Below are positions 7,311 to 40,965 of a stretch of 64,000 nt of DNA, one piece after another (the first letter of the stretch is position 1; the number at the start of each line of letters is the position of its first letter). The stretch lies in contig CAZWSL010000013.1 in the NCBI GenBank assembly GCA_964636495.1, positions 10,537 to 74,536 on the forward strand, written 5' to 3'. The notes under the pieces were generated by a model. The model ran no database searches, had not been told where the DNA came from, and was given only the letters and a program-made list of their open reading frames with translations. Source of the DNA: an uncultured Desulfobacula sp. (GTDB taxonomy: Bacteria; Desulfobacterota; Desulfobacteria; Desulfobacterales; Desulfobacteraceae). A program made the translations under genes and the position numbers.

Positions 7311-7388
7311 TTTCTGTCTAACCTCTGGCTATTGTGTTCATGCTTCATTCTGTTCAATCGCATATCTGTTCCAACCGGATTTTATCAA

Positions 7389-8453: not shown

Positions 8454-8500
8454 GGTTTTTTAAATGTAGGCATGGAGTTATTCAACTCGATCTTACTCTG

Positions 8501-9304: not shown

Positions 9305-9394
9305 GTGTACTACCTTCTGTTTTTAATTCTTCTGCATTTTTCAGCTGATAAGCAGGTTTAATATTTTTACACGTATTGACGTTGTCTGCAGAAA

Positions 9395-15522: not shown

Positions 15523-15596
15523 CATGTTTTGAGCTGCAACAGATATAGGTATGAATAAAATAACCAAAATAAAGAAATATAAGAAAGGTTGTAAAT

Positions 15597-17150: not shown

Positions 17151-17160
17151 AGGAAGAAAA

Positions 17161-17382
17161 ATGGATAAAAAAAAACTTTCGGCAGCAATGTCTGCAGTAT
17201 TTGCTTATATCAAAACATCTGAAGAGGCTGCAGCTTTTAACGCTGCTCAATCTTTGGAGCCTGTGGAAGAAGTTGAATCTCATATGCATAGAATCATGCA
17301 GCCAGGTAATATATGGGGGATTTCAGGACGTCAGGCGCATATGCAGAGCAATACAATGATGCAGATGAGAGTGTTTAAATAA
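17161..17382 (+). CDS. Small hypothetical protein encoded between the carboxyltransferase and the 5S/BCCP gene
   Basis: 73-aa ORF (MDKKKLSAAMSAVFAYIK...) with an AGGAAG-like RBS, lying tightly between two transcarboxylase genes. It has no TM segment, so it is not an OadG-type membrane anchor. Confidence 0.5.
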   Translation: MDKKKLSAAMSAVFAYIKTSEEAAAFNAAQSLEPVEEVESHMHRIMQPGNIWGISGRQAHMQSNTMMQMRVFK

Positions 17383-17418
17383 AAAGCTGTTAATAATAAA
17401 ATAATCAGGAGAAAATCA

Positions 17419-22801: not shown

Positions 22802-24565
22802 TTACTCATCGGTTCCCGGCATGAAATATACCCGGTCTCCTCGCTCCAGTCCTTTCAGGATTTCCACTGCATTCAATGTGGTTATACCAGTGGTAACCTC
22901 GACTTGTCTTATTTTGATGCCCTCCATGATCTTTACCCATTTTTTATTGTCCCTTATCTCCACGGCTGCCAGGGGAATCATTAATGCTTTTGGGTTGTCA
23001 TAGACAACAATTTCAAGATTTGTGGACATGCCCAGGCGGATCTTTTTCTGCTGCTCCTGGGTCAGACGGTCAATGGCTACCCCCACGGCGAACATGGGCC
23101 TTTCCCCGTCCTTGGATACAGCATTGGAGGCTATATGGCGGACATTACCGGTCAGGGAAAGATCTGCAAAGGCATCCCCTGACACATTGACCTTCTGGCC
23201 AAACCGGATTTTGCCAATATCGATCTCATCCACCCTGGCTTTGATTGAAAAACCGTCCAGATTACCGATACTTATGAGAACATCTCCCTGTGAGACTGAC
23301 ATTCCAGGTTCCACATCTTTAAATTCTTTGTCTCCATCCCGGCCTTTGGATCGTTTTATGATGATGCCGGATACCGGAGCATGAATCGTGGACAGATCCA
23401 GTTTTTTCTGGAGATCTTCAAGATTTGTTCTGGCATTGGCAAGTTCCATCCTGGCAATATCCAGATTCTCCTTGCTTGCCTGATAGAGTATCGAGTCCAA
23501 TGCCTCCTTTGATGCGATTAAATCGAGCTGCTGATTGGTGTACTCAGATTGAGCGGATTGAAACTCAGACCTGGAAACAATCCCCTTTTCAAACAGAATC
23601 CGGCTCTCTTCAAGTTTTCTTTTGGAGGAATCCAGGCTGTTGCCTGCTTTTGTAAAGGAGCGCTTTGCAGTTGAAACTTCTGAACTTTTTTCCCAATCCA
23701 TGAGCTGTTTGAAATTCTGTTCAGCCTTGATGTATGAAGCCTTAGCCTCTCTGAAACTTACCATAAGTTTGTCCGTATCCATGGCAATCAGCCGATCTCC
23801 CTTATCTGCCTTTTCATCATAAACAAAAAATATTTCCCTGATTTTGCCGTCAAAAGGAGCCATAATATAAATTTCTTCCAATGGAGCTACAAAACCGGAA
23901 AGGGAAACAGAGGATGTTAGAGGCTTAACCATGACCTCGGCAGCTCTCATGCCGGCTCTCTGTTCTTCTTGTTTCTCCCTTAAAAACATTGTGCCGGATA
24001 AGACATCCTGGTTCCATAGATAATAACCTGTTCCTGAAAATCCCAGAATCACAATAAAGGTAATAAAGAGTTTGATCCATTGCACTTTTTTCAAAGCTGA
24101 TTCCAGTTGTTTATTTGTTTCTTCTGCCTTGATAAAAGCCTTTCTGAGCTGGAGATTCAGGGCTTTTTCCTTTTCACGGCTTTTGGTGATTTCCGTAATG
24201 TCATTGAATACAACCACCACCCCTGCATCCCTGCCAGCATCATCAGCACCTGCCTTTAAATAGGAAGTTGCCACGGATAATACCCTTGAACTGCCATCTT
24301 TCAGGATATAATCTACTGTAGAGGTCTTGCCTACCCCGGCATCATAGACTGCATCCAGGATAGTCTGGCAAAAAAGATCGTTGCCTTCCATCTCCACCAT
24401 AAAAACCTGGCCAAAGGGCTTGTCCCTGACCGTATCCGCTTTCATTCCCAATATCTGTGCAGCCGGATTGTTGAATAAGGTGACAATGCCCTGGGGATCC
24501 AGTGCCATCACCCCTTCATTCATACTTTCTATGATACGCTGGTTAAAGGCTATTGTTCCGGCCAT
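22802..24565 (-). CDS. Membrane-fusion (HlyD/MacA/DevB-family) periplasmic adaptor with an N-terminal cytoplasmic PAS domain
   Basis: Residues about 1-125 look like a PAS fold (IIESMNEGVMALDPQGIVTLFNNPAAQILG ... VVVFNDITE). A coiled segment follows, then one TM (WIKLFITFIVILGFSGTGYYLW, residues about 163-184), then lipoyl / alpha-hairpin / beta-barrel MFP domains. It overlaps the TolC gene by 16 nt. Confidence 0.85.
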   Translation of the reverse strand: MAGTIAFNQRIIESMNEGVMALDPQGIVTLFNNPAAQILGMKADTVRDKPFGQVFMVEMEGNDLFCQTILDAVYDAGVGKTSTVDYILKDGSSRVLSVATSYLKAGADDAGRDAGVVVVFNDITEITKSREKEKALNLQLRKAFIKAEETNKQLESALKKVQWIKLFITFIVILGFSGTGYYLWNQDVLSGTMFLREKQEEQRAGMRAAEVMVKPLTSSVSLSGFVAPLEEIYIMAPFDGKIREIFFVYDEKADKGDRLIAMDTDKLMVSFREAKASYIKAEQNFKQLMDWEKSSEVSTAKRSFTKAGNSLDSSKRKLEESRILFEKGIVSRSEFQSAQSEYTNQQLDLIASKEALDSILYQASKENLDIARMELANARTNLEDLQKKLDLSTIHAPVSGIIIKRSKGRDGDKEFKDVEPGMSVSQGDVLISIGNLDGFSIKARVDEIDIGKIRFGQKVNVSGDAFADLSLTGNVRHIASNAVSKDGERPMFAVGVAIDRLTQEQQKKIRLGMSTNLEIVVYDNPKALMIPLAAVEIRDNKKWVKIMEGIKIRQVEVTTGITTLNAVEILKGLERGDRVYFMPGTDE

Positions 24566-26279: not shown

Positions 26280-26669
26280 TCAGCCGCCGCCGCTGTTTTC
26301 ATCTTTTGTCCGGTCAAACATGTCATAGCATTTGACATGCTTCCACTTGTTACCTTGTTTTTCTTCGCACTTGTGAATAGTCAGGCGTGGTTTGTAGTCA
26401 GCCTTTTTTTGTCTTTTGCTGCTAAAATATTTTCTTACATTGGTTCCATCATTGCTATTCACTAATACCCGGATCTTGTGATTTTTCAGATTCTTCAGTC
26501 CGATACATCCTGTTGACATCCCTCCCCAACTAGATTTACACTCCAAAAACCAGCCATTGTCTTTCCATTCACATCCTCTGCCCGCATTGCACTGGGCAGT
26601 CAACAAAAAGAAACATGCAGAAAATGCAAAAACAGAAACAATTTTTTTGTAAAACCTTTTTATTTTCAT
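26280..26669 (-). CDS. Small secreted (or lipo-) Cys-rich, Lys-rich protein of unknown function
   Basis: N-terminal signal sequence MKIKRFYKKIVSVFAFSACFFLLTAQCNA, read either as a possible lipobox FSAC or as SPase I cleavage after CNA. The mature part has 5 Cys, is very basic and ends in GGG. I recognise no family. Confidence 0.6.
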   Translation of the reverse strand: MKIKRFYKKIVSVFAFSACFFLLTAQCNAGRGCEWKDNGWFLECKSSWGGMSTGCIGLKNLKNHKIRVLVNSNDGTNVRKYFSSKRQKKADYKPRLTIHKCEEKQGNKWKHVKCYDMFDRTKDENSGGG

Positions 26670-26824
26670 AATATTACCTCATCATAATAGGCATAAATGC
26701 TTTTCTGCCTTTTGTCAATAAATAGAAAAGAGTTTTTTATAGTTGTTTGAGCTTTTTCTTACAAAGAGTGAATCGTTGATGAAGAGCCTGCCGGTAACAC
26801 CGGCCTGCCGCGGGTTGCAGATAT

Positions 26825-26852
26825 AAACCCACCGGTTGATGCCGGTGGGTTT
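26825..26852 (-). terminator. Hairpin terminator downstream of dctM
   Basis: aaacccaccgg-ttgatg-ccggtgggttt is an 11-bp perfect GC-rich stem starting 10 nt after the dctM stop, followed on the minus strand by TTTAT. Confidence 0.55.
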
Positions 26853-26861
26853 ATGGTCTTT

Positions 26862-28154
26862 TTAAACCATCATATTTGCTAAGAACAGAGAAATCGGCGG
26901 GAATGTTACAATAAGAGTTAACCGCACAATATCCGCTATCCAGAAGGGTGTTACACCCTTAAAGATAGTACTGACTTTTACATCGGGTAAAACCGCTTTC
27001 AGTACAAAAACATTTAATCCTACCGGCGGCGTGATCAAACTGATTTCAGTCACGACAACCACTACGATTCCAAACCAGATAAGATCAAACCCAAGAGCCT
27101 GTATCATGGGATAAAAGACAGGAACCGTTAAGACAATCATTGACATGCTTTCCAGAATACATCCCAGAATAACATAAATAAACATGAGAATGAGAATGAC
27201 AACAAAAGGTGAAACATTCCAGCTCAGTACGAAGTCAGCCAGTGCATCCGGCATTCCAACCACATTTACAAAGTTGGCAAAAATCATTGAACCAATCAGC
27301 AGAAAAAAGATCATGGCTGTTGTGCTGGCAGAATCAACCAGTACTTTTTTTAATACTTCCAGAGTCAGTTTTTTACGAAACAGAGTAAAGAAAAATGCGC
27401 CGATTGATCCAATGCCTGCAGCTTCAGTGGGTGTAAAAATTCCTGCATAAATTCCGCCCATTACAATAAAAAACAGCAATAATACACCCCAGACGCCTTT
27501 AAGACTTCTTAATCGCTCAGGCCAGGAAACTTTTTCCCCTCTGGGGCCAATTTTCGGGTTAATGCTCGTTGCCGCAGCAACGGCGCATAAGTAGCAGAAA
27601 ACCCCGAGAAGGCCGGGTAAAACACCTGCAGCAAACAGCTGTCCAATATCAGTTTCAGTCATAAGTCCGTAAATGACCAGAATAACACTTGGAGGGATAA
27701 GAATACCAAGTGTTCCACCTGCAGCAATAGAACCGGTTGCCAGACTGTCAGCATAGCCGAATTTGCGCATGGAAGGCATGGCAACCTTGCTCATGGTGGC
27801 TGCCGTAGCCAGAGAACTGCCACATACTGCGGAAAAACCACCGCAGGCAACAATTGTTGCCATGGCCAAGCCCCCCTTCCTGTGCCCTAAAAAAGCATAG
27901 GAAGATCTATAAAGCTCATGGGAAAGACCGGATTGAGTGACGAAATTACCCATTAAAATAAAAAGTGGTACGACGGATAACCCGTAATTCATTCCCTCTT
28001 CAGAGGCGACCTGGGCAACCATGGCTAAAGAAGCATGGTAGTTAATAGCCTCTCCGAATCCTATAAATCCAACAACTGCCATGGCCATGGGAATGGGCAC
28101 TTTTGCAAGAATTAAAATGAGAAGAAATGCAAATCCAATAAGCGATGCTTCCAT
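26862..28154 (-). CDS. dctM: TRAP transporter large permease
   Basis: 430-aa polytopic membrane protein of typical DctM length and composition, directly after dctQ. Confidence 0.93.
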   Translation of the reverse strand: MEASLIGFAFLLILILAKVPIPMAMAVVGFIGFGEAINYHASLAMVAQVASEEGMNYGLSVVPLFILMGNFVTQSGLSHELYRSSYAFLGHRKGGLAMATIVACGGFSAVCGSSLATAATMSKVAMPSMRKFGYADSLATGSIAAGGTLGILIPPSVILVIYGLMTETDIGQLFAAGVLPGLLGVFCYLCAVAAATSINPKIGPRGEKVSWPERLRSLKGVWGVLLLFFIVMGGIYAGIFTPTEAAGIGSIGAFFFTLFRKKLTLEVLKKVLVDSASTTAMIFFLLIGSMIFANFVNVVGMPDALADFVLSWNVSPFVVILILMFIYVILGCILESMSMIVLTVPVFYPMIQALGFDLIWFGIVVVVVTEISLITPPVGLNVFVLKAVLPDVKVSTIFKGVTPFWIADIVRLTLIVTFPPISLFLANMMV

Positions 28155-28158
28155 TAAT

Positions 28159-28671
28159 TTATTTTTCCATTTTTAGCGAATTTATCATAATAAAAAATAA
28201 AATCAGGCCTGAAATACCCACCATGATTGACATGAAATGAATCAATGGTGCAAGCGGTATAAACAAATACTCAGTCCTGTCCCCATATTCTGCAGCATCT
28301 TTGGCTTTTATCCACAACTGCCAGCTGATAACAACCATGACAGACAGATTAATCAGATTAATGATAATTTTTTGAATCTGTTTAATCTTATCAGGTATAA
28401 AGTTATCAAGCAGATCAACTGTTACATGGCCTTCCTGGGAGGTCAGAAGAACCAGGCCCAGAAAAATTACAATTGCCATTGAAAACTCTGTCAGTTCAAG
28501 TGCGCCAACAATGGGGGAATTAAAGACATAGCGCATGATAACATCGGCAAATGTTAACGCCATCATAAAAAACAGTGCAATTGATACACAAGGTTGGAAA
28601 AGCCGGTGCAGGAAATTTAAAAACAGATTCCAGGCACCGACTTGAGTGTCATTTTTTTCAGATTCAACCAT
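28159..28671 (-). CDS. dctQ: TRAP transporter small permease
   Basis: 170-aa protein with 4 TM segments lying between dctP and dctM. Confidence 0.85.
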   Translation of the reverse strand: MVESEKNDTQVGAWNLFLNFLHRLFQPCVSIALFFMMALTFADVIMRYVFNSPIVGALELTEFSMAIVIFLGLVLLTSQEGHVTVDLLDNFIPDKIKQIQKIIINLINLSVMVVISWQLWIKAKDAAEYGDRTEYLFIPLAPLIHFMSIMVGISGLILFFIMINSLKMEK

Positions 28672-28673
28672 TT

Positions 28674-29696
28674 TTATTTATATGCTTTTACTGTAGCTCT
28701 AAAGAATTTCAATGCCTCTGCACCGTCTACACCTTTGGCATTTGCTCTTTTTACCCAGTCTGCCTCCAAGTGCTGAGTGGCTTTCTTAATCTCTGCGATG
28801 AACTCAGGAGTGGCAGTTTCAATTTTATTGCCGTTTTCTTTTATGGCTGCCAGCCCTACCTTATCTGCTTCATCCCATGCTTTACCTGCAAGCTTTGCAA
28901 ATGCTTCACCAGATACATTCATAACTGCTTTCTGGTCTTTGGTTGAGAAGCCGTTAAAAGTCTTTTTATTCATGACCAGATAAAAAGAGACATTATAAAG
29001 TCCGTCGGGTATTGTTGTTGTATATGGAACCACCTTGGTAATTTTAAATGATTTAATTGATTCTAAGGGAAGAACAACACCATCTGCCACCCCGCGGGAT
29101 AGAAGCTCATAAATTTGACTGGCCGGTTTTTGAATTCCAACGATGCCAAGGCTTTTAGCAACCTGTGCTGCAATTCCGCCAGGAACCCTGAATTTCATTC
29201 CTTTAAGGTCAGCAATAGACTGGGCAACCTTTTTTGAATTATGAAGTGCTCCCGGTCCATGGGTCATAACACCCATCAATTTAGTACCTTTATACTCGTC
29301 AGCTTTGGCAAAATATTTCTGATAGGTTCTCCAATAAGCAACACTGGTTGCTTCTGCGCTGTTTCCCAAGAAGGGGAGTTCCACACCTTCAGAGAGTGTA
29401 AACCTACCTGGTGAATAAGCGTTACATGTATAGCCTACATCAGCCATACCGTTTTTTACTATATCAAAGTATGCTTTAGGATGGCCCAGCCCTTTTGCCA
29501 GAAGCTTGATATCGACCCTTCCCTCTGTTGCTTCTTTAACATTTTCCATCCAGGGGACCATCATATTTGCGACAATGGGATGCCCCGGTGGCAGCCAGGA
29601 AGAGAAGTTTAACTGTTTTGCCATTACATTTGTTGACATGATTGACATTAGCAAAAACACACTTGCGATAATAAATGCTACTCTCAATTTTTTCAT
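28674..29696 (-). CDS. dctP: TRAP transporter substrate-binding protein (DctP family)
   Basis: Signal peptide MKKLRVAFIIASVFLLMSIMSTNVMA and a DctP-type periplasmic domain. The start is set at the ATG at 29696 after GGAGG. Confidence 0.9.
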   Translation of the reverse strand: MKKLRVAFIIASVFLLMSIMSTNVMAKQLNFSSWLPPGHPIVANMMVPWMENVKEATEGRVDIKLLAKGLGHPKAYFDIVKNGMADVGYTCNAYSPGRFTLSEGVELPFLGNSAEATSVAYWRTYQKYFAKADEYKGTKLMGVMTHGPGALHNSKKVAQSIADLKGMKFRVPGGIAAQVAKSLGIVGIQKPASQIYELLSRGVADGVVLPLESIKSFKITKVVPYTTTIPDGLYNVSFYLVMNKKTFNGFSTKDQKAVMNVSGEAFAKLAGKAWDEADKVGLAAIKENGNKIETATPEFIAEIKKATQHLEADWVKRANAKGVDGAEALKFFRATVKAYK

Positions 29697-29866
29697 GGAA
29701 CATCCTCCTAAATTAATAATTATAAAATACATGAGACACTTTTTATAAGCTGTCTTCATCAACAACCTTTATAGATCAATGTTCTATAGCTTACCTTATA
29801 GTAAATTAAATTACCATATAAAAATATAAGCTACATTACAGCCATAATATAAGTCAAGACAAAAAA

Positions 29867-31447
29867 TCAATCTAATTTTATAAATGCTTCCTTCCGCCCG
29901 GTAAATTTTTCCCTGAGCTGTGGTTTCATCAGTTTTCCTGTTGGATTTCTCGGCACCTGATCAAAAATAACTTTACGAGGTACCTTATACATTGACAGTT
30001 TTGATTTGGCAAATTCAATCACTTCTTCTTCAGTTAACTGTTTTCCATCTTTCATCTGTACAATTGCAAGAACAATTTCAACCAGTCTATCATCAGGATA
30101 TCCAATACAGGCAACATCATCAATATCAGGATGATCCATTAAAGCATCCTCAATCTCAACAGGGAAAATATTTTCTCCACCACTTGTAACCATATCTTTC
30201 ATCCGGTCAACAATATAAAAATATCCCTCTTTGTCCTTTTTTAATAAATCACCCGTATAAAGCCAACCATTTTTTACTGTTTCTTCAGTTTTTTCCGGAT
30301 TTGAATAGTATTCACGCATCATTCTATTTGTCTTGAATATCAGTTCACCAACAGCTTCTTCTGCCAGCTCTCTGCCAGTTGGATCAATAATTTTTGCTTC
30401 AACTCCAAAGGTTGGCTTACCAATGGATCCTGGTTTTGAAAGCACATCTTCAGGATAGAGGTTAAACAGCCCGCCGCCGCCGCCTTCTGTAATGCCGTAA
30501 ATGTTGGATACCTTGCATGGCAGTTTTTCCACAAGAAGTTTCATGATGTCAAACGGTACCGGCTGTGCTCCGATTTCCATATATTTCCAGGAAGAGAGAT
30601 CATAGTCATCAAGATTAATTTCTCCTTTGTCCAGGGCATTGAGAAGTGCGATTCCAATGGGAACGACAAAGAGCACATCTGTACATTTTTCTTCTGCAAC
30701 GGCCTCAATAATCCATTTGGGATCCCTGAAATCTCTGATAATAGTCCCCTGTGCACCTGTTGCATAGAAAGGTGCCCATAAAAACATTGTTCCACTATGA
30801 TATAAAGGCAGAAAAAAGAGATAGTTGTCATCTTTTTGAACAAAATAAGTCATGCCATTCCCAACTGCGGTGTTGTTAATGGAAAAGTGGGTGTGAAGTA
30901 CGGGTTTGGGTTTTCCTGTAGTCCCTGAAGTGAACATCATTGCAAGGGCATGATCCCTTTCAACTTCCACAAGTGCATCAGTTATATCCTGATATTGACG
31001 TACAGAGTTGAAATCGATCATATCTTCAGGTACATTATCCCCAATGCAGATATATTTTTTAACAGAAGTCATCTCCTGTTGAGCCGGTTGAACAACACCC
31101 AGAAATTCAGAACCTAAAATAAAGACATCTGGATTTGAAACCTCTGCAGCATAAAGGATATCAGAACTTTCAAATCTGAAATTAAGCGGTACAACAACCG
31201 CACCGATCCGTATGATTGCAAAGTATGTTACAAGCCACTCCAAAGAGTCTTTTTGAAGGTGCATGACAAAATCTCCATGCTTTACCCCCATCTCCTTTAC
31301 CAGAAAATTAGCTGTTCTGTTTATTTCGTCATTAAACTCCTCCCAGGTAAATGTCCTTCTTCCCCCTGTTGCAGGAGTTCTTTCTATCAGGCAGATCTTG
31401 TCAGGAATATGTCTTGCATGAATTGATGCATAACCGGAATAATTCAA
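29867..31447 (-). CDS. AMP-forming acyl-CoA synthetase/ligase (substrate unknown)
   Basis: FTSGTTGKPKPV, YGITEGGG and GWLYTGDL...DRMKDMVTSGGENIFPVEIE are ANL-superfamily motifs. I propose a TTG start at 31447, 6 nt after AAAGGAGG, because the ATG at 31513 has no RBS. Confidence 0.9.
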   Translation of the reverse strand: MNYSGYASIHARHIPDKICLIERTPATGGRRTFTWEEFNDEINRTANFLVKEMGVKHGDFVMHLQKDSLEWLVTYFAIIRIGAVVVPLNFRFESSDILYAAEVSNPDVFILGSEFLGVVQPAQQEMTSVKKYICIGDNVPEDMIDFNSVRQYQDITDALVEVERDHALAMMFTSGTTGKPKPVLHTHFSINNTAVGNGMTYFVQKDDNYLFFLPLYHSGTMFLWAPFYATGAQGTIIRDFRDPKWIIEAVAEEKCTDVLFVVPIGIALLNALDKGEINLDDYDLSSWKYMEIGAQPVPFDIMKLLVEKLPCKVSNIYGITEGGGGGLFNLYPEDVLSKPGSIGKPTFGVEAKIIDPTGRELAEEAVGELIFKTNRMMREYYSNPEKTEETVKNGWLYTGDLLKKDKEGYFYIVDRMKDMVTSGGENIFPVEIEDALMDHPDIDDVACIGYPDDRLVEIVLAIVQMKDGKQLTEEEVIEFAKSKLSMYKVPRKVIFDQVPRNPTGKLMKPQLREKFTGRKEAFIKLD

Positions 31448-31517
31448 TGATGCCTCCTTTGCTTTTAAAGATTTATTTTTTGATAAAGAGTAATATATAT
31501 ACAGACACCTCAAAAAA

Positions 31518-32453
31518 TTAAAAATTCACTTTGTCGAGTCCTTTCAGCCTGAGAATCTTTCTTGCTTCATCAGATGTCGCTGGTTCAAGACTCATCTCCT
31601 TTGCAACTCTTTTTACCATATTTACCTGATCAGCACTTGCTTTTGCCATGATTCCCTTACCTGCATAAACTGAATCTTCCAGTCCCACTCTTACATTCTG
31701 GGCACCCATTGCCATTGCAGTTGTTGTGATCGGAATTTGAAAACGTCCTCCAGCTGCAACTGACCAGGTGAAATTATCCTCTCCAAGAACCTCTTTTGCC
31801 TCATCATGAATTAAAACAAGGTGTTTTACAGAAGGTGTCATCCATCCCACCATGGGACCGAATACAAACTGAAGATGTACAGGGGTTTTTAAAAGGTTTT
31901 CCTCCAGCAGCCATTTCACATATGAGACATGGCCAAGTTCGTATATTTCTATTTCTGGTTTTGTATCTATTTCAAGAAAGGTTTCAGCGTAAATTTCATC
32001 ATCCCTGAAAGTGGGTCTGAAAGTCACATTTTTACACAGTTCGAGGTATTCGGGCTCCCAGTCATATTTAAACTCCTTGAACCTTCCTGCAATCTGGAAA
32101 ATGCCGAAATTAAAGGGAGCAGGATCAAAAGAACACATTTCCGGTTCAAGTTTTTTTATGGGAATGAGTTTTTCTGCTGTTGTCTGGTTCATACCTCCAC
32201 CTGTTGTGGGAAGCAGAATCATATTGCATCTTGCTTTTATTTTTGAATGAACTTCCATGAAAAGATCCGGGTCTGCTGAAGGAAAACCATTTTCCGGATT
32301 TCTTACATGGATATGCGCAATGGCAGCACCGGCTTCGTGTGCTTTTACCGCATCTTCAACAATTTCATCAGGTGTTATGGGAAGCGCATCACTCATTGTG
32401 GGAATATGAACAGAACCGGTAATCGCTGCCGTAATGATTATTTTGTTATCCAT
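31518..32453 (-). CDS. Beta-keto acid cleavage enzyme (BKACE / DUF849, 3-keto-5-aminohexanoate cleavage enzyme family)
   Basis: IIITAAITGS, the ITPDEI...AGAAIAHIHVRNP HxH metal motif and LPTTGGG match a Kce-like TIM barrel. Length is 311 aa. Confidence 0.88.
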   Translation of the reverse strand: MDNKIIITAAITGSVHIPTMSDALPITPDEIVEDAVKAHEAGAAIAHIHVRNPENGFPSADPDLFMEVHSKIKARCNMILLPTTGGGMNQTTAEKLIPIKKLEPEMCSFDPAPFNFGIFQIAGRFKEFKYDWEPEYLELCKNVTFRPTFRDDEIYAETFLEIDTKPEIEIYELGHVSYVKWLLEENLLKTPVHLQFVFGPMVGWMTPSVKHLVLIHDEAKEVLGEDNFTWSVAAGGRFQIPITTTAMAMGAQNVRVGLEDSVYAGKGIMAKASADQVNMVKRVAKEMSLEPATSDEARKILRLKGLDKVNF

Positions 32454-32479
32454 TTTATCTCTCCTTGTTTTAATTCAAA

Positions 32480-32962
32480 TTATATTTTGTATTCTTCATC
32501 CAGGTTAAAGGTAAAAATTCTTTTTTCTTTGACAGTGTCAATGACAAAGGAAGATTTAATTACCTGGATTCCTTTTATCTGTGTCAGTTTTGTATTCATG
32601 AACTCTCCATAGGTTTTAATATTCTTTGCAATTACTTTTAAAATAAAATCATTGGCACCTGCAATCTGATAACATTCAACCACTTCATCAAGGTTGAAGA
32701 ATTTTTTTTTCATATCACCCACAGAGGAGAGAGAACTCAAATTCACACTGATATTAACTATGGCGGTTATTAAAAAGCCAATACTTTGAGGATCAAGTAC
32801 AGCAGTGAAATGAGAGATAATTCCTGCATTTTCCAACCGTTTAACCCTCTCAAGGGTTGCAGGTGCTGAAATACCGACAATTTTAGAGAGTTTTGAATTG
32901 GTCGTTCTTCCATTCTCCTGCAGTGTGTTTAAAATCTGCTTGTCAATTTTATCAAGAACCAT
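32480..32962 (-). CDS. Lrp/AsnC-family transcriptional regulator
   Basis: LDKIDKQILNTLQENGRTTNSKLSKIVGISAPATLERVKRLENAGII is the HTH, followed by a C-terminal RAM/ACT-like domain. Confidence 0.92.
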   Translation of the reverse strand: MVLDKIDKQILNTLQENGRTTNSKLSKIVGISAPATLERVKRLENAGIISHFTAVLDPQSIGFLITAIVNISVNLSSLSSVGDMKKKFFNLDEVVECYQIAGANDFILKVIAKNIKTYGEFMNTKLTQIKGIQVIKSSFVIDTVKEKRIFTFNLDEEYKI

Positions 32963-33000
32963 ATTCTTCCCTTAAAAATAATTGAGACTCTATTTTTCTA

Positions 33001-34356
33001 TCATAAGAGTAGATGTTTATATTGCTCTTTAATTAAAGGCAACAGCTCTTTTAACGTATCATCAATTTTTTCAATTAAAAAGTCTATATCACTCTTTTTC
33101 ATTGCACAGGAGAGAATAAAAAGTCCTCTTGGTATGCTGAAAACATCTCTGTTCAACAATGAGAGGTGCATCAAAGCATGAAGTTTTTCCTCTGACTTAA
33201 GAACCTGCTCTGCAGTCGTGATCGGTTCATTGAAAAAATGCAGATTTATAAGAGAACCAATATGGTTGGATTGAAGTTTTAATCCATTGTCCTTAAAACT
33301 TTTCAACAGACCTTTCTGCAGTTGATCTCCGAGTGAGTTAATAAATTCTATGGCATTTTCATCGTATTTTGACAGGGCTGCATAACCAGCCTGCATCAAT
33401 GTTTCATACCCGTTAAAAGTTCCTGAATGATATAAAGGCGTATCTGTCTGTTCATGACAGAAAATATCCATGATCTCTTTTTTACCGCCAAACACCCCAA
33501 TGGGGAGGCCTCCTCCTATAACCTTGCCAACTGTTGTCAGATCAGGTGTAACACTGAAATATTTCTGGCACCCGCCAATATTTACCCGGTAAGAGAAGAT
33601 CTCATCAAAAATCAGGAGAACACCATTCTCATCAGTTACTTTTCTCACATGCTCCAGATATCCTTTTGCAGGTAAAACAACGCCTCCGGCTCCAAGAAAC
33701 GGTTCCATGATTACTGCTGCAAGTTCTGAAGCATTCTCTTTTACACTTTTCTCAAGTGCCTCAAAATCATTAAAAGGTACTTCAAGCATATCTTCTGTCA
33801 TCCCTTTAGGGATTCCTGCAGTAATTACATTTTTTTTTGTGGATGCAGCAACACAGTCATGGGTGCCATGGAAGCCTCCTGACATTTTCAGGATCTTATC
33901 TTTACCTGTATACGTTCTGGCTGTCCTCAACGCAAACATCGTGGCTTCAGTGCCTGAATTTACAAACCTGATTTTCTCAAATCCCGGTATTCTCTGGCAG
34001 AGTAATTTTGCAAGTTTGAACTGGCCGTCCGTGGGGGTGGAATACTGGGAACCCTTTTCTATGCCTTCCTGCACAGCCTTGACAATATCGGCATCACCAT
34101 GTCCGTGAACAATGGCGCCATAGGCATTTGTCACATCAAGAAGTCTGTGTCCCTCATGGGTTTTGACAAATGCTCCACTGCCGGATTCAATGTGAATGGG
34201 ATAGGGTTTAAAATAACTTAAACTCCTTGTTGCACCACCCGGAATATAGTTTATAAGTTTTTCATGATGTACTTTTGAAACATGGTATTTCTCCATGTAA
34301 GTATCTGTAATCTGTTTTTCAATCTGCTCTTCTATTCCTGTCTGTTTTTCAGTCAT
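33001..34356 (-). CDS. Class III (fold type I) PLP aminotransferase, glutamate-1-semialdehyde-aminomutase-like; candidate beta-amino acid transaminase
   Basis: FVNSGTEATMFALRTAR, DEIFSYR and GKVIGGGLPIGVFGG (PLP Lys) are present. The N-terminal IPGGATRS and SGGFHG differ from the HemL motifs PGGVNSPVRAF and EGCYHG. Confidence 0.85.
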   Translation of the reverse strand: MTEKQTGIEEQIEKQITDTYMEKYHVSKVHHEKLINYIPGGATRSLSYFKPYPIHIESGSGAFVKTHEGHRLLDVTNAYGAIVHGHGDADIVKAVQEGIEKGSQYSTPTDGQFKLAKLLCQRIPGFEKIRFVNSGTEATMFALRTARTYTGKDKILKMSGGFHGTHDCVAASTKKNVITAGIPKGMTEDMLEVPFNDFEALEKSVKENASELAAVIMEPFLGAGGVVLPAKGYLEHVRKVTDENGVLLIFDEIFSYRVNIGGCQKYFSVTPDLTTVGKVIGGGLPIGVFGGKKEIMDIFCHEQTDTPLYHSGTFNGYETLMQAGYAALSKYDENAIEFINSLGDQLQKGLLKSFKDNGLKLQSNHIGSLINLHFFNEPITTAEQVLKSEEKLHALMHLSLLNRDVFSIPRGLFILSCAMKKSDIDFLIEKIDDTLKELLPLIKEQYKHLLL

Positions 34357-34451
34357 GATTTTTTCCTGATATATAAAAATTATTTTTTTAACAAAGTAAT
34401 ATCTGTTCTTTAACAGTCTTTAAAAAAACATGATCTTCGAAATTTACTCCT

Positions 34452-34481
34452 GGCAGATCCGGTTCAAGGACCAGATCTGCC
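34452..34481 (-). other. Intercistronic hairpin directly after the MIO-enzyme gene
   Basis: ggcagatccgg / ccagatctgcc is an 11-bp stem with one mismatch and an 8-nt loop, 9 nt downstream of the stop at 34490. With no adjacent U-run it is more likely an mRNA processing or stability element or a weak attenuator. Confidence 0.3.
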
Positions 34482-34489
34482 CATGTCTG

Positions 34490-36115
34490 CTATTTCTCTT
34501 TTTCATGAACAATCAAAAGTTCTCCAACTTCTTCTTCTATTTTTTCAACAAATTCACCAGACTCAATTCTTGTTTTTAAATCTTCCAGATCATCAATATA
34601 TACTTTGTCCTTGTTCATGTAATCAAGGGTTTCACGAACTGCTTTGTGCATGATCTTGCCTGCTGGACTGAGTCTTTCAATACCTCTCTGATCTGCTGCC
34701 TGGGCAGCACATAGCAGTTCAAAAGCAAGGATGTGATTTGTATTCTCAACAATTTTTCTTGTTTTTCTGCCGGCAATTAAACCAAAACTGACAATATCCT
34801 GGAAATCAGCAGTTGATGTTATGGACTGTATAGAGGCTGGGACTGCAAGAGTCCGGTTTTCAGCAACCAGTGATGTTGTCATGAACTGGCCTCCCATAAG
34901 CCCCATCCTGACACCTGTATCTTCCTTGCAGAGGAATGGCGGCAGTCCGGTGCTGTGGTGTTCATCCATGAATCTGTCAATTCTTCTGTCACTAACAACG
35001 CCTATGTTGACCATGGATATTCCAAGGCAGTCCATTGCAAAAGAGATCGGCTGGCCATGGAAATGACCGTTATGGAAGAACGTATCCAGTTCAGTAAAAA
35101 TCAAAGGGTTGTCATTACTTGAGTTTAGTTCCCGCAAAAGGACATCCTGAGCATTTTTCAGGGAGTCTTTTGTGGGGCCTACAAACTGGGGTGTGCAGCG
35201 GATCGAGTAAGCATCTTCCACTGGAATATGCGCAACAGATACACCTTTGTGCTGCTGCAGGGTTGACTGAAGTTTGGTTGAAAGCTCGAGTTCATCAATG
35301 GCTAAATTGCTGCCCTTGAGAAGTTTTGTAAGGTTCATGGCAGTTGCAAATTGTCCTGGATGGTATTTCTGTTCGTGGACTATCGGGTCAAAGGGATTAA
35401 ATCTTCCCATAAGGGTTTCAATAGCAAATGCAGCAATTATATCTGAGTTTTTCAAAGTGTTTTCTGCCTCTGAAATAACGGTGCAGGCAAGGCCCACCAT
35501 TCCTGAAGTTCCATTAATCAGTGAGAGCCCCTCTTTTGCATTCAGATGCATCAGTTTGATTCCAGCAGCCTCCATAGCTTCTTTTCCTGGTAACACTTTT
35601 CCTTCAAATCTTGCTTTCCACTCTCCAAAGGCAACACTTGCAATGCAGCCGAGCGGTCCAAGGTCTCCGCTTGTACCAAGTGAGCCCTTTCTCGGCACAA
35701 CGGGAAACACTTTTTTATTAATCATTTCAAGATAGATTTTCAGGTTTTCCTCTTTAATCCCTGAGAAGCCACGGCAGAGAGAATTGGCCCTTGCAATCAT
35801 GAATGTTCTTACAAGTGTATCTTCAAATGGTTTGCCAACCTGGGTTGTAATGCTTCTTACCAGATTTTTCTGAAAATCATTATCCCTCTCTTTTGGCAAG
35901 AGATAATCAACAAGACCTCCGCAACTTGTGTTCACACCATAGATACAACGCTCTTCATTTGCCCACTTATCCACAAGTTCTCTGCACTCACGAATTTTAG
36001 GCCAGTTTTTTTCGTCTATTTCGACTTGGATGGATGTATCTTGACCCGCTTTTATCAGCTCTTCAATTGTTAATGAAAATCCATCAATAGTTAATGTATT
36101 GTCTTTTATCGGCAT
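34490..36115 (-). CDS. MIO-dependent aromatic amino acid ammonia-lyase / 2,3-aminomutase family enzyme (HAL/PAL/TAL/PAM/TAM superfamily)
   Basis: GSLGTSGDLGPLG carries a TSG triad where the MIO-forming ASG normally sits. LINGTS, DAYSIRCTPQ, SNDNPL, GHFHGQP and a strong AAGGAGG RBS are also present. Canonical TGFG is replaced by TSCGG, and the HAL SH pair by SI. Confidence 0.88.
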   Translation of the reverse strand: MPIKDNTLTIDGFSLTIEELIKAGQDTSIQVEIDEKNWPKIRECRELVDKWANEERCIYGVNTSCGGLVDYLLPKERDNDFQKNLVRSITTQVGKPFEDTLVRTFMIARANSLCRGFSGIKEENLKIYLEMINKKVFPVVPRKGSLGTSGDLGPLGCIASVAFGEWKARFEGKVLPGKEAMEAAGIKLMHLNAKEGLSLINGTSGMVGLACTVISEAENTLKNSDIIAAFAIETLMGRFNPFDPIVHEQKYHPGQFATAMNLTKLLKGSNLAIDELELSTKLQSTLQQHKGVSVAHIPVEDAYSIRCTPQFVGPTKDSLKNAQDVLLRELNSSNDNPLIFTELDTFFHNGHFHGQPISFAMDCLGISMVNIGVVSDRRIDRFMDEHHSTGLPPFLCKEDTGVRMGLMGGQFMTTSLVAENRTLAVPASIQSITSTADFQDIVSFGLIAGRKTRKIVENTNHILAFELLCAAQAADQRGIERLSPAGKIMHKAVRETLDYMNKDKVYIDDLEDLKTRIESGEFVEKIEEEVGELLIVHEKEK

Positions 36116-36341
36116 GACTCCTCCTTAAAAATAGCAGTTTAATAAATATCTCTCCTGACTTATCAATTGAGGATAGGCAAATGATCTGGTTTTTGTCAAG
36201 AAATAATTTTTATTTTATAAGGATTATCGTGAAAATATCATATTAATCGAAGTTGAATCTTTTGATTTTGGCTTATTTTATAAGCTTTTTTGTTATGTTT
36301 GCCTTAATTTTATAATATTTATCAAAAAGTGGTCTGTTTTT

Positions 36342-36974
36342 TTAAAAAGGGATTTCAAAAAAATAGTTTTTTAAATAGAGCTCTATTACATTTTCAAGAT
36401 TATCAAGAGATGCAGAATAAAAGTGATCGCAGTTTTTCAGTACTTCATATTGAGGTGTGATCTTCCATCTTTTTATATGATCCTGAATAAGAGAGGGAGG
36501 GGCAATCTCATCGCTGTCACCTGAAACAATAAGGCCTGTGTGAGGCATTGCTTTTATATCTTCAAAGCTTATAAATCCCACAGGTGGAGATATCATGATA
36601 TGATCGTCAATTTCATATCCCCCTTCAATGATCTTTGCATTTACCCTTGCACCAAAAGAGTAGCCGGCAAGACAGACTCTTTCATAACCCAGTCTGCTTT
36701 TTAAGAAAGAGAGTACTGCAAGAACATCATCCTGCTCTCCAACACCGTTATCAAACACACCGGTACTTTTCCCTGTTCCCCTGAAATTAAATTTCAGTGT
36801 GGTAAATCCTTTATTGAAAAATGCCCTTTCAATACTCATCACCACAGCGTTATTCATATCTCCTCCATAAAGGGGATGAGGATGGGTAATGGCTACAGCT
36901 TTTATCAATGAATTTTGGTTTAAGACTGCTTCAATCGTATTACTGCTGCAGTCAATTGTTATGTTGGAGTCCAT
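36342..36974 (-). CDS. Alpha/beta-fold hydrolase (small, 210 aa)
   Basis: ITHPHPLYGGDMNN, the nucleophile elbow GYSFGA and a C-terminal DH motif. Confidence 0.75.
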   Translation of the reverse strand: MDSNITIDCSSNTIEAVLNQNSLIKAVAITHPHPLYGGDMNNAVVMSIERAFFNKGFTTLKFNFRGTGKSTGVFDNGVGEQDDVLAVLSFLKSRLGYERVCLAGYSFGARVNAKIIEGGYEIDDHIMISPPVGFISFEDIKAMPHTGLIVSGDSDEIAPPSLIQDHIKRWKITPQYEVLKNCDHFYSASLDNLENVIELYLKNYFFEIPF

Positions 36975-38821: not shown

Positions 38822-39658
38822 TTATTCATGTAATTGTCTGGTTTCCGGGAGTGAATTTTCATACTCTCCCGTTATTGATCTATCTTTGATTTTATGATTG
38901 TCAACTGTGTCATCTGCTGGATATGTTTTTAACAAATTATCAATATTAAATAAACCAGAAGGTGCATTTGAGTGTAAATTGATATGTTCCACATTAATCA
39001 TGGCAAACAGTCTGCTGTTTAAAAAAATATGAATCTGCATTGGGTAAAATGTTTTACTGACCTGTTTCCAGTTTTTATAAACAAACTCCACCTGCTGACT
39101 GTTTTTCTCTACCACATATCTTAATGGAAGAAATGTATTTTTTTCTATCCACAGACCGGGAACCTCACTGTTTTTTTTTCTCGGTTTTCCAATCACATAA
39201 CAGATCGTGTCATTATATCTTTGGAAGGATACTTCTTCAGTATCTGTCCCCCACAGATCAAGTTGTTTCAAATAGTTTTCATTATCCCTGTAAAGAAGGA
39301 TATCTGTATAGAGGTCAGTAAGGGATTTTTCACGGGAGATTCCTTCTCTTTCTGATATTTTAAAGAAATTAAAATCAGACTCCACACTGAAATTAGCCAG
39401 GATATCGGGGAAAGTGTTAATGCGCAGACGGCCTGGAAATGAAAAGATCAGGTTTTCCTTTATTTTCACATAGGGCTGATCTGAGTCCTGATAATCTAAA
39501 ATCACCTTATTCTGCCACACTTCAATACCGGCAGGTTCTTTGATCTTGTTTTGAACAAGATGCATCAGATGTGTCGCCTCTGGAACAAATGTCCAGCCTG
39601 TGGAGGGCATCACAAAAGATAAAAGTATAGACAGGGATAGAAAAAGATATTTTTTCAT
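38822..39658 (-). CDS. Secreted hypothetical protein (possibly a LolA-like fold)
   Basis: Signal peptide [21 protein letters not shown], then a beta-rich sequence with no motif I recognise. The start is set at 39658. It is wedged between eno and pyrG with 35-nt and 20-nt gaps. Confidence 0.6.
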
Positions 39659-39693
39659 AATTTTTTCAGGTCGCACATCTGTTAAACAGCAGA

Positions 39694-40965
39694 TCAAACA
39701 AAGATGTCCCTTGGAAATGCAGCAGAATCCCCAAGTTTTTCTTCAATTCTGATCAGCTGGTTATACTTTGCTACTCTGTCGCTCCTTGACATTGATCCGG
39801 TTTTAATCTGTCCTGAGTTTACACCCACGGCAAGGTCGGCAATAAATGAATCTTCTGTTTCACCTGATCTATGTGAAATAACGGTGGTATATCCGGACTC
39901 CTTTGCCATCTGAATGGTATCTAATGTCTCTGTTACGGTTCCAATCTGGTTGAGTTTGATTAAAATCGAATTGCCGATACTTCTGCTTATCCCTTTCTGG
40001 AAAATATCCGGATTTGTGACAAAAATATCATCACCAACAATCTGAGTTGAGTTGCCAAGGCGCTGAGTCATTAATTCCCATGAGTCCCAGTCGCTTTCAG
40101 CAAGACCGTCCTCTATGGAGTACAGAGGATATTTTTCGATTAATCTTTCATAATAGTCAATCAGATCTTTTGATGAGAGTTCTTTTCCTTCAGAAGCAAA
40201 GATATATTTCCCGTTTTTGTAAAATTCAGAAGCAGCTGCATCAAGGGCTATTCCGATATCTTTTCCCGGTCTGTATCCAGCTGCTTCTATGGCATTAATT
40301 ATATATTCAACAGCCTCTTCATTGGATTTAAGATCAGGAGCAAACCCGCCTTCATCTCCCACAGCTGTGGAAAGGCCCTCACTTTTCAGTATTTTTGCAA
40401 GGTGATGAAATGTTTCAGCACCCATCTGGACTGCCTGGGATATGGAATCAGCACCAAATGGAAGAATCATGAATTCCTGAATATCAAGATTATTTGCAGC
40501 GTGAGCCCCTCCGTTGATTACATTCATCATGGGCAGAGGAAGCACCCTTGCATTAATGCCGCCAATATGCTGATACAGAGGTATTTCACAAGCATTTGCC
40601 GCAGCCCTTGCTGCTGCCATGGATACGCCAAGAATGGCATTGGCTCCAAGTCTTGATTTGTTTTCTGTGCCATCTATATCCTGCATTGTCCGGTCAAGGC
40701 CTGCCTGGTCCATGGCATCGTATCCAATAATTTCAGGTGCAATCACCTCATTAACGTTAACTACAGCATTTAAAACACCTTTACCCATGAACCGGTTTTT
40801 CTGGTTGTCCCTGAGTTCAAGAGCCTCTCTTGATCCGGTTGAAGCTCCAGAGGGAACAGCTGCTCTTCCTGATGCTCCGCAAGCCAGTGTTACATCCACC
40901 TCAATTGTTGGATTTCCCCTTGAGTCTATAATCTCCCTTGCCATAATATCAATTAATTCAGTCAT
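39694..40965 (-). CDS. eno: Enolase
   Basis: [26 protein letters not shown] and other enolase signatures over the full length. Confidence 0.97.

Follow-up and report, generated by a model that had tools for sequence, protein, structure and literature searches.

A gene cluster of marine sulfate reducers predicted to lead from phenylalanine to benzoyl-CoA by way of β-phenylalanine

Introduction

The stretch of DNA studied here, called the window in the following, consists of 64,000 nucleotides of contig CAZWSL010000013.1 from an uncultured Desulfobacula species (assembly GCA_964636495.1). It carries a cluster of eight genes that encode an enzyme of the 4-methylideneimidazole-5-one (MIO) family, a class-III transaminase, an Lrp/AsnC-type regulator, a β-keto acid cleavage enzyme (BKACE), an acyl/aryl-CoA ligase and the three subunits of a tripartite ATP-independent periplasmic (TRAP) transporter. 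Sequence comparisons suggest that the cluster probably consists of two modules, the first of which would form a three-step entry of L-phenylalanine (L-Phe) into the anaerobic benzoyl-CoA pathway. With slightly less assurance, but still on balance, we expect that marine sulfate reducers of the genera Desulfobacula, Desulfotignum and Desulfospira possess an undescribed form of Phe catabolism. In this route an MIO aminomutase, a β-transaminase and a BKACE, three soluble enzymes, would yield benzoyl-CoA directly without ATP, oxygen or decarboxylation and would bypass phenylpyruvate, phenylacetate and phenylglyoxylate; the protein designated Pal in D. toluolica Tol2 would catalyze the aminomutase step.

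The open reading frames (ORFs) of the window were listed, and the proteins were scored against Pfam and NCBIfam profiles and compared with solved structures. The cluster comprises the following genes, in the order of transcription:

34490-36115, minus strand: proposed phenylalanine 2,3-aminomutase, an AdmH/PaPAM-type member of the MIO family (541 aa; PF00221, 523 bits)
33001-34356, minus strand: class-III pyridoxal phosphate-dependent transaminase of the GSAM-like subgroup, proposed β-Phe:2-oxoacid aminotransferase (451 aa; PF00202, 189 bits)
32480-32962, minus strand: Lrp/AsnC-family transcription regulator (160 aa; HTH_24, HTH_AsnC-type, AsnC_trans_reg)
31518-32453, minus strand: BKACE (DUF849), proposed to cleave benzoylacetate (311 aa; PF05853, 292 bits)
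29867-31513, minus strand: FadD-type acyl/aryl-CoA ligase (548 aa; AMP-binding and AMP-binding_C)
28674-29765, minus strand: TRAP solute-binding protein DctP (363 aa; PF03480, 137 bits)
28159-28671, minus strand: TRAP small membrane subunit DctQ (170 aa; PF04290, 83 bits)
26862-28154, minus strand: TRAP large permease DctM (430 aa; PF06808, 317 bits; TIGR00786, 314 bits, above its cutoff)

The eight co-directional ORFs span 36115-26862 and are separated, from 5' to 3', by 133, 38, 26, 4, 101, 2 and 4 nt. The original prediction had given the same limits with gaps of 2-170 nt, which the ORF listing narrows to 2-133 nt, and its family calls agree with the Pfam assignments (Lyase_aromatic, Aminotran_3, HTH_24/AsnC_trans_reg, BKACE, AMP-binding plus AMP-binding_C, DctP, DctQ and DctM). 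Gene content, family placement, and the conservation of residues and of linkage, as reported below, were read directly from the sequences.

The MIO enzyme

Among the NCBIfam models the MIO enzyme scores best with TIGR04475 (Phe_D_beta_mut, representing the D-β-phenylalanine-forming AdmH/PaPAM; 665.2 bits). The other MIO models follow with 462-487 bits for HutH, 447 for tyrosine aminomutase (TAM), 345 for tyrosine ammonia-lyase (TAL) and 262 for phenylalanine ammonia-lyase (PAL); no model reaches its curated cutoff. The best solved relative is AdmH (3UNV, 477.5 bits), as compared with 365 bits for SgTAM and 284 bits for histidine ammonia-lyase (HAL), and the identity to PaPAM amounts to 45.6% over 498 aligned positions. 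The MIO-forming triad T148-S149-G150 lies within GSLGTSGDLGPL; the triad of PaPAM presumably has the same T-S-G form. Y59 corresponds to PaPAM Y78, Y303 and R306 to Y320 and R323, F411 to F428 and F438 to F455, and Q456, Leu104, Leu171 and Leu216 of PaPAM are also kept. We take Tyr78 of PaPAM to be catalytic, Tyr320 and Arg323 to act at the active site with the arginine binding the carboxylate, and Phe428, Phe455, Gln456, Leu104, Leu171 and Leu216 to line the phenyl pocket. At the position of PaPAM V108 the window enzyme has I89 and SgTAM has a histidine, which, going by the PaPAM and SgTAM structural papers, we assume to bind the phenol. The pocket is thus hydrophobic (I89, F411, F438), offers neither His nor Tyr to a 4-hydroxyl group and lacks the Ser-His of HAL; it looks specific for Phe.

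Other members of the family fit less well. Histidine ammonia-lyase was rejected since TIGR01225 (462 bits, cutoff 539) and NF006871 (487 bits, cutoff 524) were missed and neither hutU nor hutI, nor any other hut gene, occurs in the 64-kb window. The same results dispose of the plain histidase that the original prediction had itself named as an outcome unfavorable to its proposal. Tyrosine 2,3-aminomutase and TAL were rejected on the basis of TIGR03832 (447 bits, cutoff 501) and of the Ile in place of the SgTAM histidine. The window enzyme resembles AdmH/PaPAM of Pantoea agglomerans, which serves andrimid biosynthesis, in its best profile and structure match, the catalytic Tyr, the carboxylate Arg and the hydrophobic aryl pocket. 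It differs in that its gene resides in a catabolic-looking operon with a transaminase, a BKACE and a transporter rather than in a cluster of nonribosomal peptide synthetase (NRPS) and polyketide synthase (PKS) genes. No NRPS or PKS genes were found in the 64-kb window, which rules out an andrimid-like natural-product cluster.

The transaminase

The transaminase belongs to the subgroup of class-III enzymes that includes glutamate-1-semialdehyde aminomutase (GSAM, HemL) and the β-transaminases VpAT (4AO9), MesAT (2YKU) and StoTA (6K8H). Its scores with the solved relatives are nearly tied (GSAM 275, StoTA 6K8H 271.5, MesAT/VpAT 249 bits). More can be learned from the N-terminal part, where PGGATRSLSYFKPYP forms a gap-free alignment with PGGNTRTTVYSAPYP of StoTA, PGANSRSVLFYAPFP of VpAT and PGGNTRSILFHRPFP of MesAT, whereas the matching segment of GSAM reads PGGVNSPVRAFKSV and contains an insertion. 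The arginine-bearing motif P-G-[GA]-x-x-R ... P-[FY]-P is present and aligns with R36 of StoTA, R41 of VpAT and R54 of MesAT. StoTA R36, the arginine of this segment, binds the carboxylate of the β-amino acid (PMC10589169). The window enzyme reads PGGATRSLSYF against GGVNSPVRAF in HemL, such that the arginine is shifted and the GSAM insertion is missing. A rough neighbor-joining tree places the window clade next to the β-transaminases.

A true HemL was rejected: the scores stay below the cutoffs (TIGR00713 equivalog, 357 against 527 bits; NF000818 subfamily, 355 against 398 bits) and the substrate segment is the wrong one. The possibility raised in the original prediction that the transaminase is simply hemL thus finds no support in the profiles, and the segment appears to be of the β-transaminase type. 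For comparison with Kat, 3-aminobutyryl-CoA aminotransferase, the Kat gene was recovered from metagenome contigs by means of a published PCR primer. Kat (CLOAM0809) is HemL-like, has a known homologue of 60% identity and partners a BKACE in a variant of lysine fermentation (PMC3149608). It is only 31% identical to the window transaminase, which lacks the N-terminal insertions of Kat and differs from it in the N-terminal segment; an orthologue of this acyl-CoA transaminase was therefore rejected.

The reaction proposed for the window transaminase, β-Phe to benzoylacetate, is that of VpAT and MesAT. With these and StoTA it shares the subgroup and the gap-free PGGxxR...P[YF]P segment; it differs in an identity of 34%, in scores that tie with those of true GSAMs and in an Ala at the position of VpAT E75. 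In the aerobes studied, the keto acid is lost by decarboxylation to acetophenone (PMC6150868), whereas in the window cluster a BKACE follows.

The BKACE

The best NCBIfam model for the BKACE is that of the 3,5-dioxohexanoate enzyme (343 bits, cutoff 430), ahead of Kce (211, cutoff 382) and the 3-oxoadipate enzyme (161, cutoff 350), so that all three named equivalog cutoffs (triacetate lyase, Kce, 3-oxoadipate) are missed. The best solved relative is 3LOT (296 bits). The motifs HIHVR (H-x-H) and VGLEDS (G-x-E-D) align with those of 3LOT, 3E02 and 3E49; we take their roles to be metal binding and catalysis, as in Kce. In Kce, Glu14 binds the 5-amino group (PMC10470551). One BKACE subgroup cleaves benzoylacetate in vitro, as stated in Table 7 of PMC4922564, a secondary source that cites Bastard 2014.

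Close homologues of the window BKACE occur in several other settings. In L083 (L083:9001-11001) such a homologue stands in tandem with a second, approximately 41% identical BKACE paralogue, and in L086 (L086:5114-11978) two paralogues (approximately 41%) lie approximately 5 kb apart amid genes for a thiolase, an acyl-CoA dehydrogenase, a 3-hydroxyacyl-CoA dehydrogenase and HpaB-like proteins; the close homologues of the two loci are 71-74% identical to the window enzyme. An unusual arrangement is found on a contig of the Logan assembly of SRR29002887 (L097:1-17490). There, a BKACE 76% identical to that of the window directly follows giant trans-AT-type PKS genes and precedes a class I/II aminotransferase, a 2-oxoacid:ferredoxin oxidoreductase and two acyltransferases.

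Conservation of the gene linkage

The linkage of the genes was surveyed in one genome per GTDB species, which yielded 80 loci scored by tblastn with the window proteins. The 73 loci with an MIO identity of at least 70% were designated Desulfobacteraceae-type, and only loci with enough flanking sequence entered the counts. The transaminase gene follows the MIO gene in all of the 63 loci; the Lrp gene is present in 59 of 62, the BKACE gene in 53 of 55 and the ligase gene in 48 of 50. Among the named genera are Desulfobacula, Desulfotignum and Desulfospira, the last with D. joergensenii DSM 10085, and D. toluolica Tol2 displays the same order of eight genes (FO203503.1, approximately 2,119,446-2,129,186); in Tol2 and in metagenome-assembled genomes (MAGs) of Desulfobacula the MIO protein homologues are 85-94% identical. 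Since the same order recurs in dozens of species-level genomes, the arrangement is not due to chance, and the association on which the original prediction depended is borne out.

A second and more telling group consists of seven gammaproteobacterial loci (L073-L078 and L080; Acidiferrobacteraceae, Arenicellales and others) with MIO homologues 62-65% identical to the window enzyme. In all seven, a class-III transaminase gene directly follows, and in L073 the two reading frames overlap. The MIO homologue of L073, the gamma locus that was analyzed further, again scores best with TIGR04475 (683 bits), and the best solved relative of its transaminase is the β-Phe aminotransferase of Variovorax (4AO9, 281 bits). 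Because the MIO homologue is paired with a bona fide β-Phe-type transaminase, the MIO enzyme probably supplies β-Phe. In most of the gamma loci, genes for a PRK12582-type acyl-CoA synthetase and, in divergent orientation, an Lrp regulator are also present; none of the seven has a BKACE gene. In L073 (L073:7368-12935), genes for an enoyl-CoA hydratase, a short-chain dehydrogenase/reductase (SDR), an ACS-like ligase, a methylmalonyl-CoA mutase and a carboxyltransferase are located nearby.

Also more telling is L087 of a Thermodesulfobacteriota MAG (L087:10001-18491; GCA_042573375.1, JBHPDE010000014.1). It contains the genes of the MIO enzyme, the transaminase and the BKACE (72, 56 and 78% identity to the window proteins), followed by those of a TetR regulator, BamB, BamC and an HdrD-like protein. 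TetR replaces Lrp, and no Lrp, ligase or TRAP gene is present at the locus. BamB scores 1086 bits with 4Z3W_A of G. metallireducens and BamC 252 bits with 4Z3W_E; the HdrD-like gene that follows these genes of the class II benzoyl-CoA reductase is a bamD-like candidate. Since the trio adjoins class II benzoyl-CoA reductase genes, benzoyl-CoA is its probable product. Upstream on the other strand are NuoE-like and NuoF-like genes and genes with Fer2_4 and Glu_synthase domains, which could encode further electron-transfer subunits of the Bam type.

Some loci deviate. In a MAG binned as Halieaceae (L067:531-5393) the MIO, transaminase and Lrp genes are of the delta type (77, 71 and 64% identity), a distant PaaK-family ligase takes the place of the BKACE and the FadD-type ligase, and heme d1 (nir) biosynthesis genes follow; this locus reflects either horizontal transfer or a mis-binned contig. 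A locus labeled Nitrospirae (L024), with an 87% identical MIO gene, may also be mis-binned. In a Desulfobacula MAG (L026:13081-13929) no BKACE gene lies between those of Lrp and the ligase in the order MIO, transaminase, Lrp, ligase, apparently owing to a deletion. The BKACE-free loci with a PaaK-family ligase (L067) or a PRK12582-type ligase (gamma loci) may use a ligase/thiolase alternative.

The ligase and TRAP module

Compared with solved relatives, the ligase scores 256 bits with FadD13, 214 with feruloyl-CoA synthetase and 203 with 4-coumarate-CoA ligase (4CL). It is 72.8% identical to the ligase encoded beside DctP4 in the phenylacetate/phenylpyruvate cluster of D. multivorans. The TRAP assignment follows from the adjacent dctP, dctQ and dctM genes and the TIGR00786 score above its cutoff. 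The best solved relative of the window DctP is 4P56 (292 bits), followed by 5IGA/5I5P; we take all of these to be solute-binding proteins whose structures were determined with aromatic carboxylates, mandelate and hydroxybenzoates among them. For the DctP of the Tol2 type, the solved-structure comparison revealed no close relative.

Three non-orthologous TRAP types accompany the same core cluster: the window type in 8 loci, the Tol2 type, whose DctM is approximately 28% identical to that of the window, in 32 loci and a third type in 5 loci. In L052, L062 and L082, which contain no Lrp gene, the genes of the third type lie upstream of that for the MIO enzyme; in L021 and L081 they lie downstream of the ligase gene. 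The transporter has been replaced repeatedly among the genomes. The Tol2-cluster TRAP resembles the one encoded at 2.77 Mb in D. multivorans, with identities of 90.2% for DctM, 79.7% for DctP and 74.7% for DctQ. For DctM4Q4P4 of D. multivorans and DctM9Q9P9 of Tol2, the latter described as "supposedly phenylalanine/phenylacetate importing", 74-90% identity has been published (Doerries et al., PMC5109826). Since the two ranges are equal, the Tol2-cluster TRAP is very probably DctPQM9. The published data on DctM9Q9P9 would then indicate, indirectly, that the TRAP end of the operon is formed on phenylalanine or phenylacetate. Tol2 itself grows on phenylalanine, a point in favor of the proposed route.

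In D. multivorans, the set to which the ligase beside DctP4 belongs is formed with phenylacetate and phenylpyruvate, and cinnamate and 3-phenylpropanoate use a different ligase (PMC5109826). Within the 21-kb stretch of D. multivorans around the ligase-TRAP module, no MIO, transaminase or BKACE genes were found beside the module. The two known clusters relate to that of the window in different ways: the ligase of D. multivorans is 73% identical to that of the window and its DctM4Q4P4 transporter 75-90% identical to that of Tol2, whereas the window TRAP is a different, non-orthologous one with a DctM 28% identical to that of Tol2. Because of the three TRAP types, the ligase-free trio linked to bam genes in L087 and the separate module of D. 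multivorans, we read the ligase and the TRAP system as a swappable module for the uptake and activation of aromatic carboxylates that is attached to a three-enzyme core. The same three observations rule out that they belong to the core chemistry. The original prediction had included ligase and transporter in the route; this part is abandoned, as they prove to be exchangeable, have no counterpart in L087 and are shared with the D. multivorans cluster. The ligase may activate phenylacetate, benzoylacetate, cinnamate formed as a by-product or the acetoacetate that the BKACE reaction would release.

Proposed route and alternatives

In the proposed route, the first module would comprise the MIO enzyme, the transaminase and the BKACE under the control of the Lrp-type regulator. 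The PaPAM-like MIO enzyme would shift the amino group of L-Phe from C2 to C3 to form (S)-β-phenylalanine. The GSAM-like class-III transaminase would transfer this amino group to a 2-oxoacid, yielding benzoylacetate (3-oxo-3-phenylpropanoate). BKACE would then convert benzoylacetate and acetyl-CoA to benzoyl-CoA and acetoacetate before decarboxylation to acetophenone can take place. Free benzoylacetate formed by transamination of β-Phe decays to acetophenone (PMC6150868), which provides a rationale for a trapping enzyme. The three-step entry would require no ATP; acetoacetate would be activated and split to acetyl-CoA elsewhere, and benzoyl-CoA would pass to the class II (Bam) reductase. The second module, the FadD-type ligase and DctPQM, would serve the uptake and activation of aromatic carboxylates, similar to the unit that D. 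multivorans employs for phenylacetate. Each catalytic step, with its substrate, stereochemistry and direction of flux, is predicted from the sequence comparisons. The core of this route had been put forward in the original prediction and fits the comparative evidence, namely the PaPAM-like MIO enzyme, the β-type segment of the transaminase, the conserved linkage, the VpAT-like partner in the gamma locus and bamBC in L087; its most tentative part is the assignment of the MIO enzyme as a mutase and not a lyase.

Several points weigh against the route. The MIO enzyme does not reach the TIGR04475 equivalog cutoff of 800, yet it scores approximately 180 bits above the next MIO model. Within one clade, the lyase EncP is closely related to the mutase AdmH and the activities of the two overlap in a temperature-dependent manner, so that sequence does not settle the choice between the two; it is gene context alone, the neighboring β-type transaminase, that argues for a mutase. 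The Tol2 orthologue was given the name "Pal: predicted phenylalanine ammonia lyase" by its authors, and Woehlbrand and colleagues reportedly proposed in 2013 the non-oxidative deamination of Phe to cinnamate. The transaminase is 33-37% identical to GSAMs and to β-transaminases alike, and it has an Ala at the VpAT E75 position, where the published motif of aromatic β-transaminases has Glu (PMC10589169). BKACE homologues of 70-76% identity occur in unrelated contexts (paired BKACE paralogues, a TctABC/CoA-transferase locus, a β-oxidation-like locus and a trans-AT PKS cluster); for this reason substrate specificity cannot be read from homology, and the attempt to do so was dropped. The proposed chemistry has no necessary role for the ligase. 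Phe-grown cells of Tol2 also induce an indolepyruvate-oxidoreductase route to phenylacetyl-CoA (PMC5109826); given this induction, Phe may be degraded mainly by a route other than that of the cluster.

Some of these points are those on which an ammonia-lyase reading would build. The MIO enzyme would then be a plain phenylalanine ammonia-lyase, the ligase would activate cinnamate and β-oxidation encoded elsewhere would lead to benzoyl-CoA in an EncP/EncH-like manner, with the transaminase and the BKACE serving some other purpose. Besides the source name of the Tol2 orthologue, the score below the aminomutase cutoff and the great similarity of lyases and mutases in the AdmH/EncP clade, this explanation draws on the 4CL and feruloyl-CoA-synthetase relatives of the ligase and on the enoyl-CoA hydratase and SDR genes near the MIO gene of L073. 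We nevertheless consider it unlikely, since it leaves without use a transaminase that is tied to the MIO gene in 63 of 63 delta-type and 7 of 7 gamma-type loci. Moreover, the trio of L087 adjoins bamBC without a ligase, and the window cluster contains no hydratase, dehydrogenase or thiolase gene. The D. multivorans orthologue of the ligase is formed with phenylacetate and phenylpyruvate, and cinnamate uses another ligase (PMC5109826). The original prediction had kept open an alternative in which the MIO lyase supplies cinnamate to the ligase; the placement of the ligase orthologue in the phenylacetate/phenylpyruvate set, and not that for cinnamate and 3-phenylpropanoate, weakens it.

Also conceivable, but with a still smaller chance of being correct, is that the same enzyme logic handles another input, either an imported β-amino acid, with the MIO enzyme equilibrating the α- and β-forms, or another aryl or hydrophobic alanine. 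A transporter, of any of three non-orthologous types, is always attached, MIO aminomutases are generally known to be reversible and the window DctP is closest to binding proteins presumably solved with aromatic carboxylates. The pocket residues, however, equal those of the Phe-specific PaPAM, the residue that would select for tyrosine or histidine is absent, β-Phe is generally rare in nature compared with Phe, and L087 does without any transporter.

The formation of benzoyl-CoA from L-Phe by way of free benzoylacetate also has to be set against a CoA-dependent variant. Here the ligase would form β-phenylalanyl-CoA, a Kat-like transaminase would convert it to benzoylacetyl-CoA and a thiolase would follow, leaving acetoacetate or other β-keto acids to BKACE. 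Free benzoylacetate, which is unstable, would not arise in such a variant; three lineages combine the MIO-transaminase pair with ligases of three unrelated types, and Kat, a HemL-like class-III enzyme, converts a thioester mimic of β-Phe to the thioester of 3-oxo-3-phenylpropanoate (PMC3149608). It is nonetheless quite improbable, as the window transaminase is merely 31% identical to Kat, lacks the Kat insertions at the N-terminus and keeps the arginine that in β-transaminases binds the free carboxylate; in addition, L087 keeps BKACE without a ligase, and the transaminase partner in the gamma locus has its nearest relative in VpAT, whose substrate is the free acid. There is hardly any reason to assume either the anabolic direction, from benzoyl-CoA and acetoacetate through benzoylacetate and β-Phe to Phe, or a historical accident of neighborhood: although the three reactions are reversible in principle and reversal has been demonstrated for the triacetate BKACE (PMC10470551), a catabolic role is indicated by the presence of an Lrp-type regulator and a transporter and by the linkage to genes of benzoyl-CoA reductase, and an accident is at odds with the conservation in approximately 60 species-level genomes and the recurrence of the MIO-transaminase pair in a second phylum.

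Relation to known pathways

The catabolic route from L-Phe proposed here resembles lysine fermentation (lysine 2,3-aminomutase ... Kdd, Kce, with Kat in a variant), in which an amino group is moved to the β-position, a β-keto acid is formed and this is cleaved with acetyl-CoA (PMC3149608). The comparison with the Kce step had already been drawn in the original prediction and holds, the scheme of shift, keto acid formation and cleavage being the same. Lysine fermentation also furnishes an instance of a BKACE and a HemL-like transaminase in one pathway (PMC3149608). The window cluster differs in having an MIO mutase instead of the radical-SAM and B12 mutases and a transaminase instead of the dehydrogenase. 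Its transaminase would act before BKACE, not after it, and is not a Kat orthologue, and with 211 bits its BKACE does not reach the Kce cutoff of 382.

The route for ethylbenzene and acetophenone in Aromatoleum shares the intermediate benzoylacetate and the product benzoyl-CoA; it spends ATP on the carboxylation of acetophenone and on a benzoylacetate-CoA ligase, and a thiolase follows (PMC4729919, PMC5214803). The window BKACE, by contrast, would transfer CoA without ATP, keep the thioester and release acetoacetate. Triacetate acetoacetate-lyase of anaerobic phloroglucinol degradation, represented by the named model closest to the window BKACE (343 bits), is likewise a BKACE that finishes an anaerobic aromatic degradation (PMC10470551). 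The window protein stays below the cutoff of 430, and the cluster contains no phloroglucinol reductase, cyclohydrolase or dehydrogenase genes.

Boundaries and neighboring genes

Two non-coding features border the cluster:

36116-36341, minus strand: AT-rich leader of 226 nt, 5' of the MIO gene (GC 0.29 in 36000-36499)
26822-26855, no strand assigned: perfect hairpin with a 15-bp stem, TATAAACCCACCGGT-TGAT-GCCGGTGGGTTTATG, with 7 GC pairs, 7 nt past the dctM stop

Both had been noted in the original prediction, as an AT-rich region of 226 nt and a strong hairpin, and were recovered as described; the hairpin is likely a bidirectional terminator. Within the leader a sigma-70-like match to the consensus (TTGACA-18-TATCCT) occurs at 36199-36170. 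Matches in the region are as numerous as expected from shuffled sequence, and promoter-like matches were given no weight as evidence.

The cluster forms an island amid housekeeping genes. Upstream are genes for an alpha/beta hydrolase, CTP synthase, enolase and adenylate kinase, downstream an OEP/HlyD/ABC/FtsX efflux set, and futalosine-pathway, serine-biosynthesis and cell-wall genes are found elsewhere in the window. The efflux set includes a membrane-fusion protein of the HlyD family that carries a PAS domain at its N-terminus, an uncommon combination (22802-24565, minus strand). Two ORFs have no Pfam match: one of 129 aa just beyond the terminator hairpin (26280-26669, minus strand) and one of 291 aa between enolase and CTP synthase (38822-39697, minus strand), which has a counterpart of 276 aa, also without a Pfam match, at the same place in Tol2. 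Genes for a DUF6125 protein, a carboxyltransferase and a fused HMGL-like/PYC_OADA/biotinyl protein stand in a row at 14779-19440 (plus strand) and resemble a decarboxylase- or carboxylase-type set. The futalosine-pathway menaquinone genes (6504-10501, minus strand) encode two VitK2_biosynth and two radical-SAM MqnC/MqnE-like proteins.

Significance

Each of the protein families is known, as are the transamination of β-Phe, the in vitro cleavage of benzoylacetate by a BKACE and the Tol2 locus. What is new is the pathway reading, a well-supported hypothesis in which known kinds of enzymes would be assembled in a new way. In full-text searches of the literature no paper was found that joins an aminomutase, a β-transaminase and a BKACE or that describes a route from β-Phe to benzoyl-CoA, and the NetSyn study of BKACE contexts mentions neither aminomutases nor phenylalanine. 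The original prediction had regarded the combination as undescribed; this holds for the pathway but not for the cluster, which had already been seen in Tol2 with its MIO gene labeled Pal. To our knowledge, all known bacterial MIO aminomutases serve natural-product biosynthesis, and textbook accounts of anaerobic Phe degradation are limited to the path through phenylpyruvate, phenylacetate and phenylglyoxylate and to reductive routes of the Stickland type.

If the proposal is true, it would add a new peripheral pathway to the benzoyl-CoA hub, an MIO aminomutase would for the first time be assigned to catabolism, and one of the numerous orphan subfamilies of BKACE would gain a physiological substrate; the proposal would also explain how cells avoid the loss of benzoylacetate to acetophenone. 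A phenylalanine aminomutase, an (S)-β-transaminase and an enzyme that cleaves a C-C bond while transferring CoA are also of biocatalytic interest for the chemistry of β-amino acids. Cultured organisms with the cluster are D. toluolica Tol2 and Desulfospira joergensenii. Because many species-level genomes of sulfate reducers that are abundant in marine sediments carry the cluster, the pathway could matter for the turnover of amino-acid carbon in anoxic sediments.

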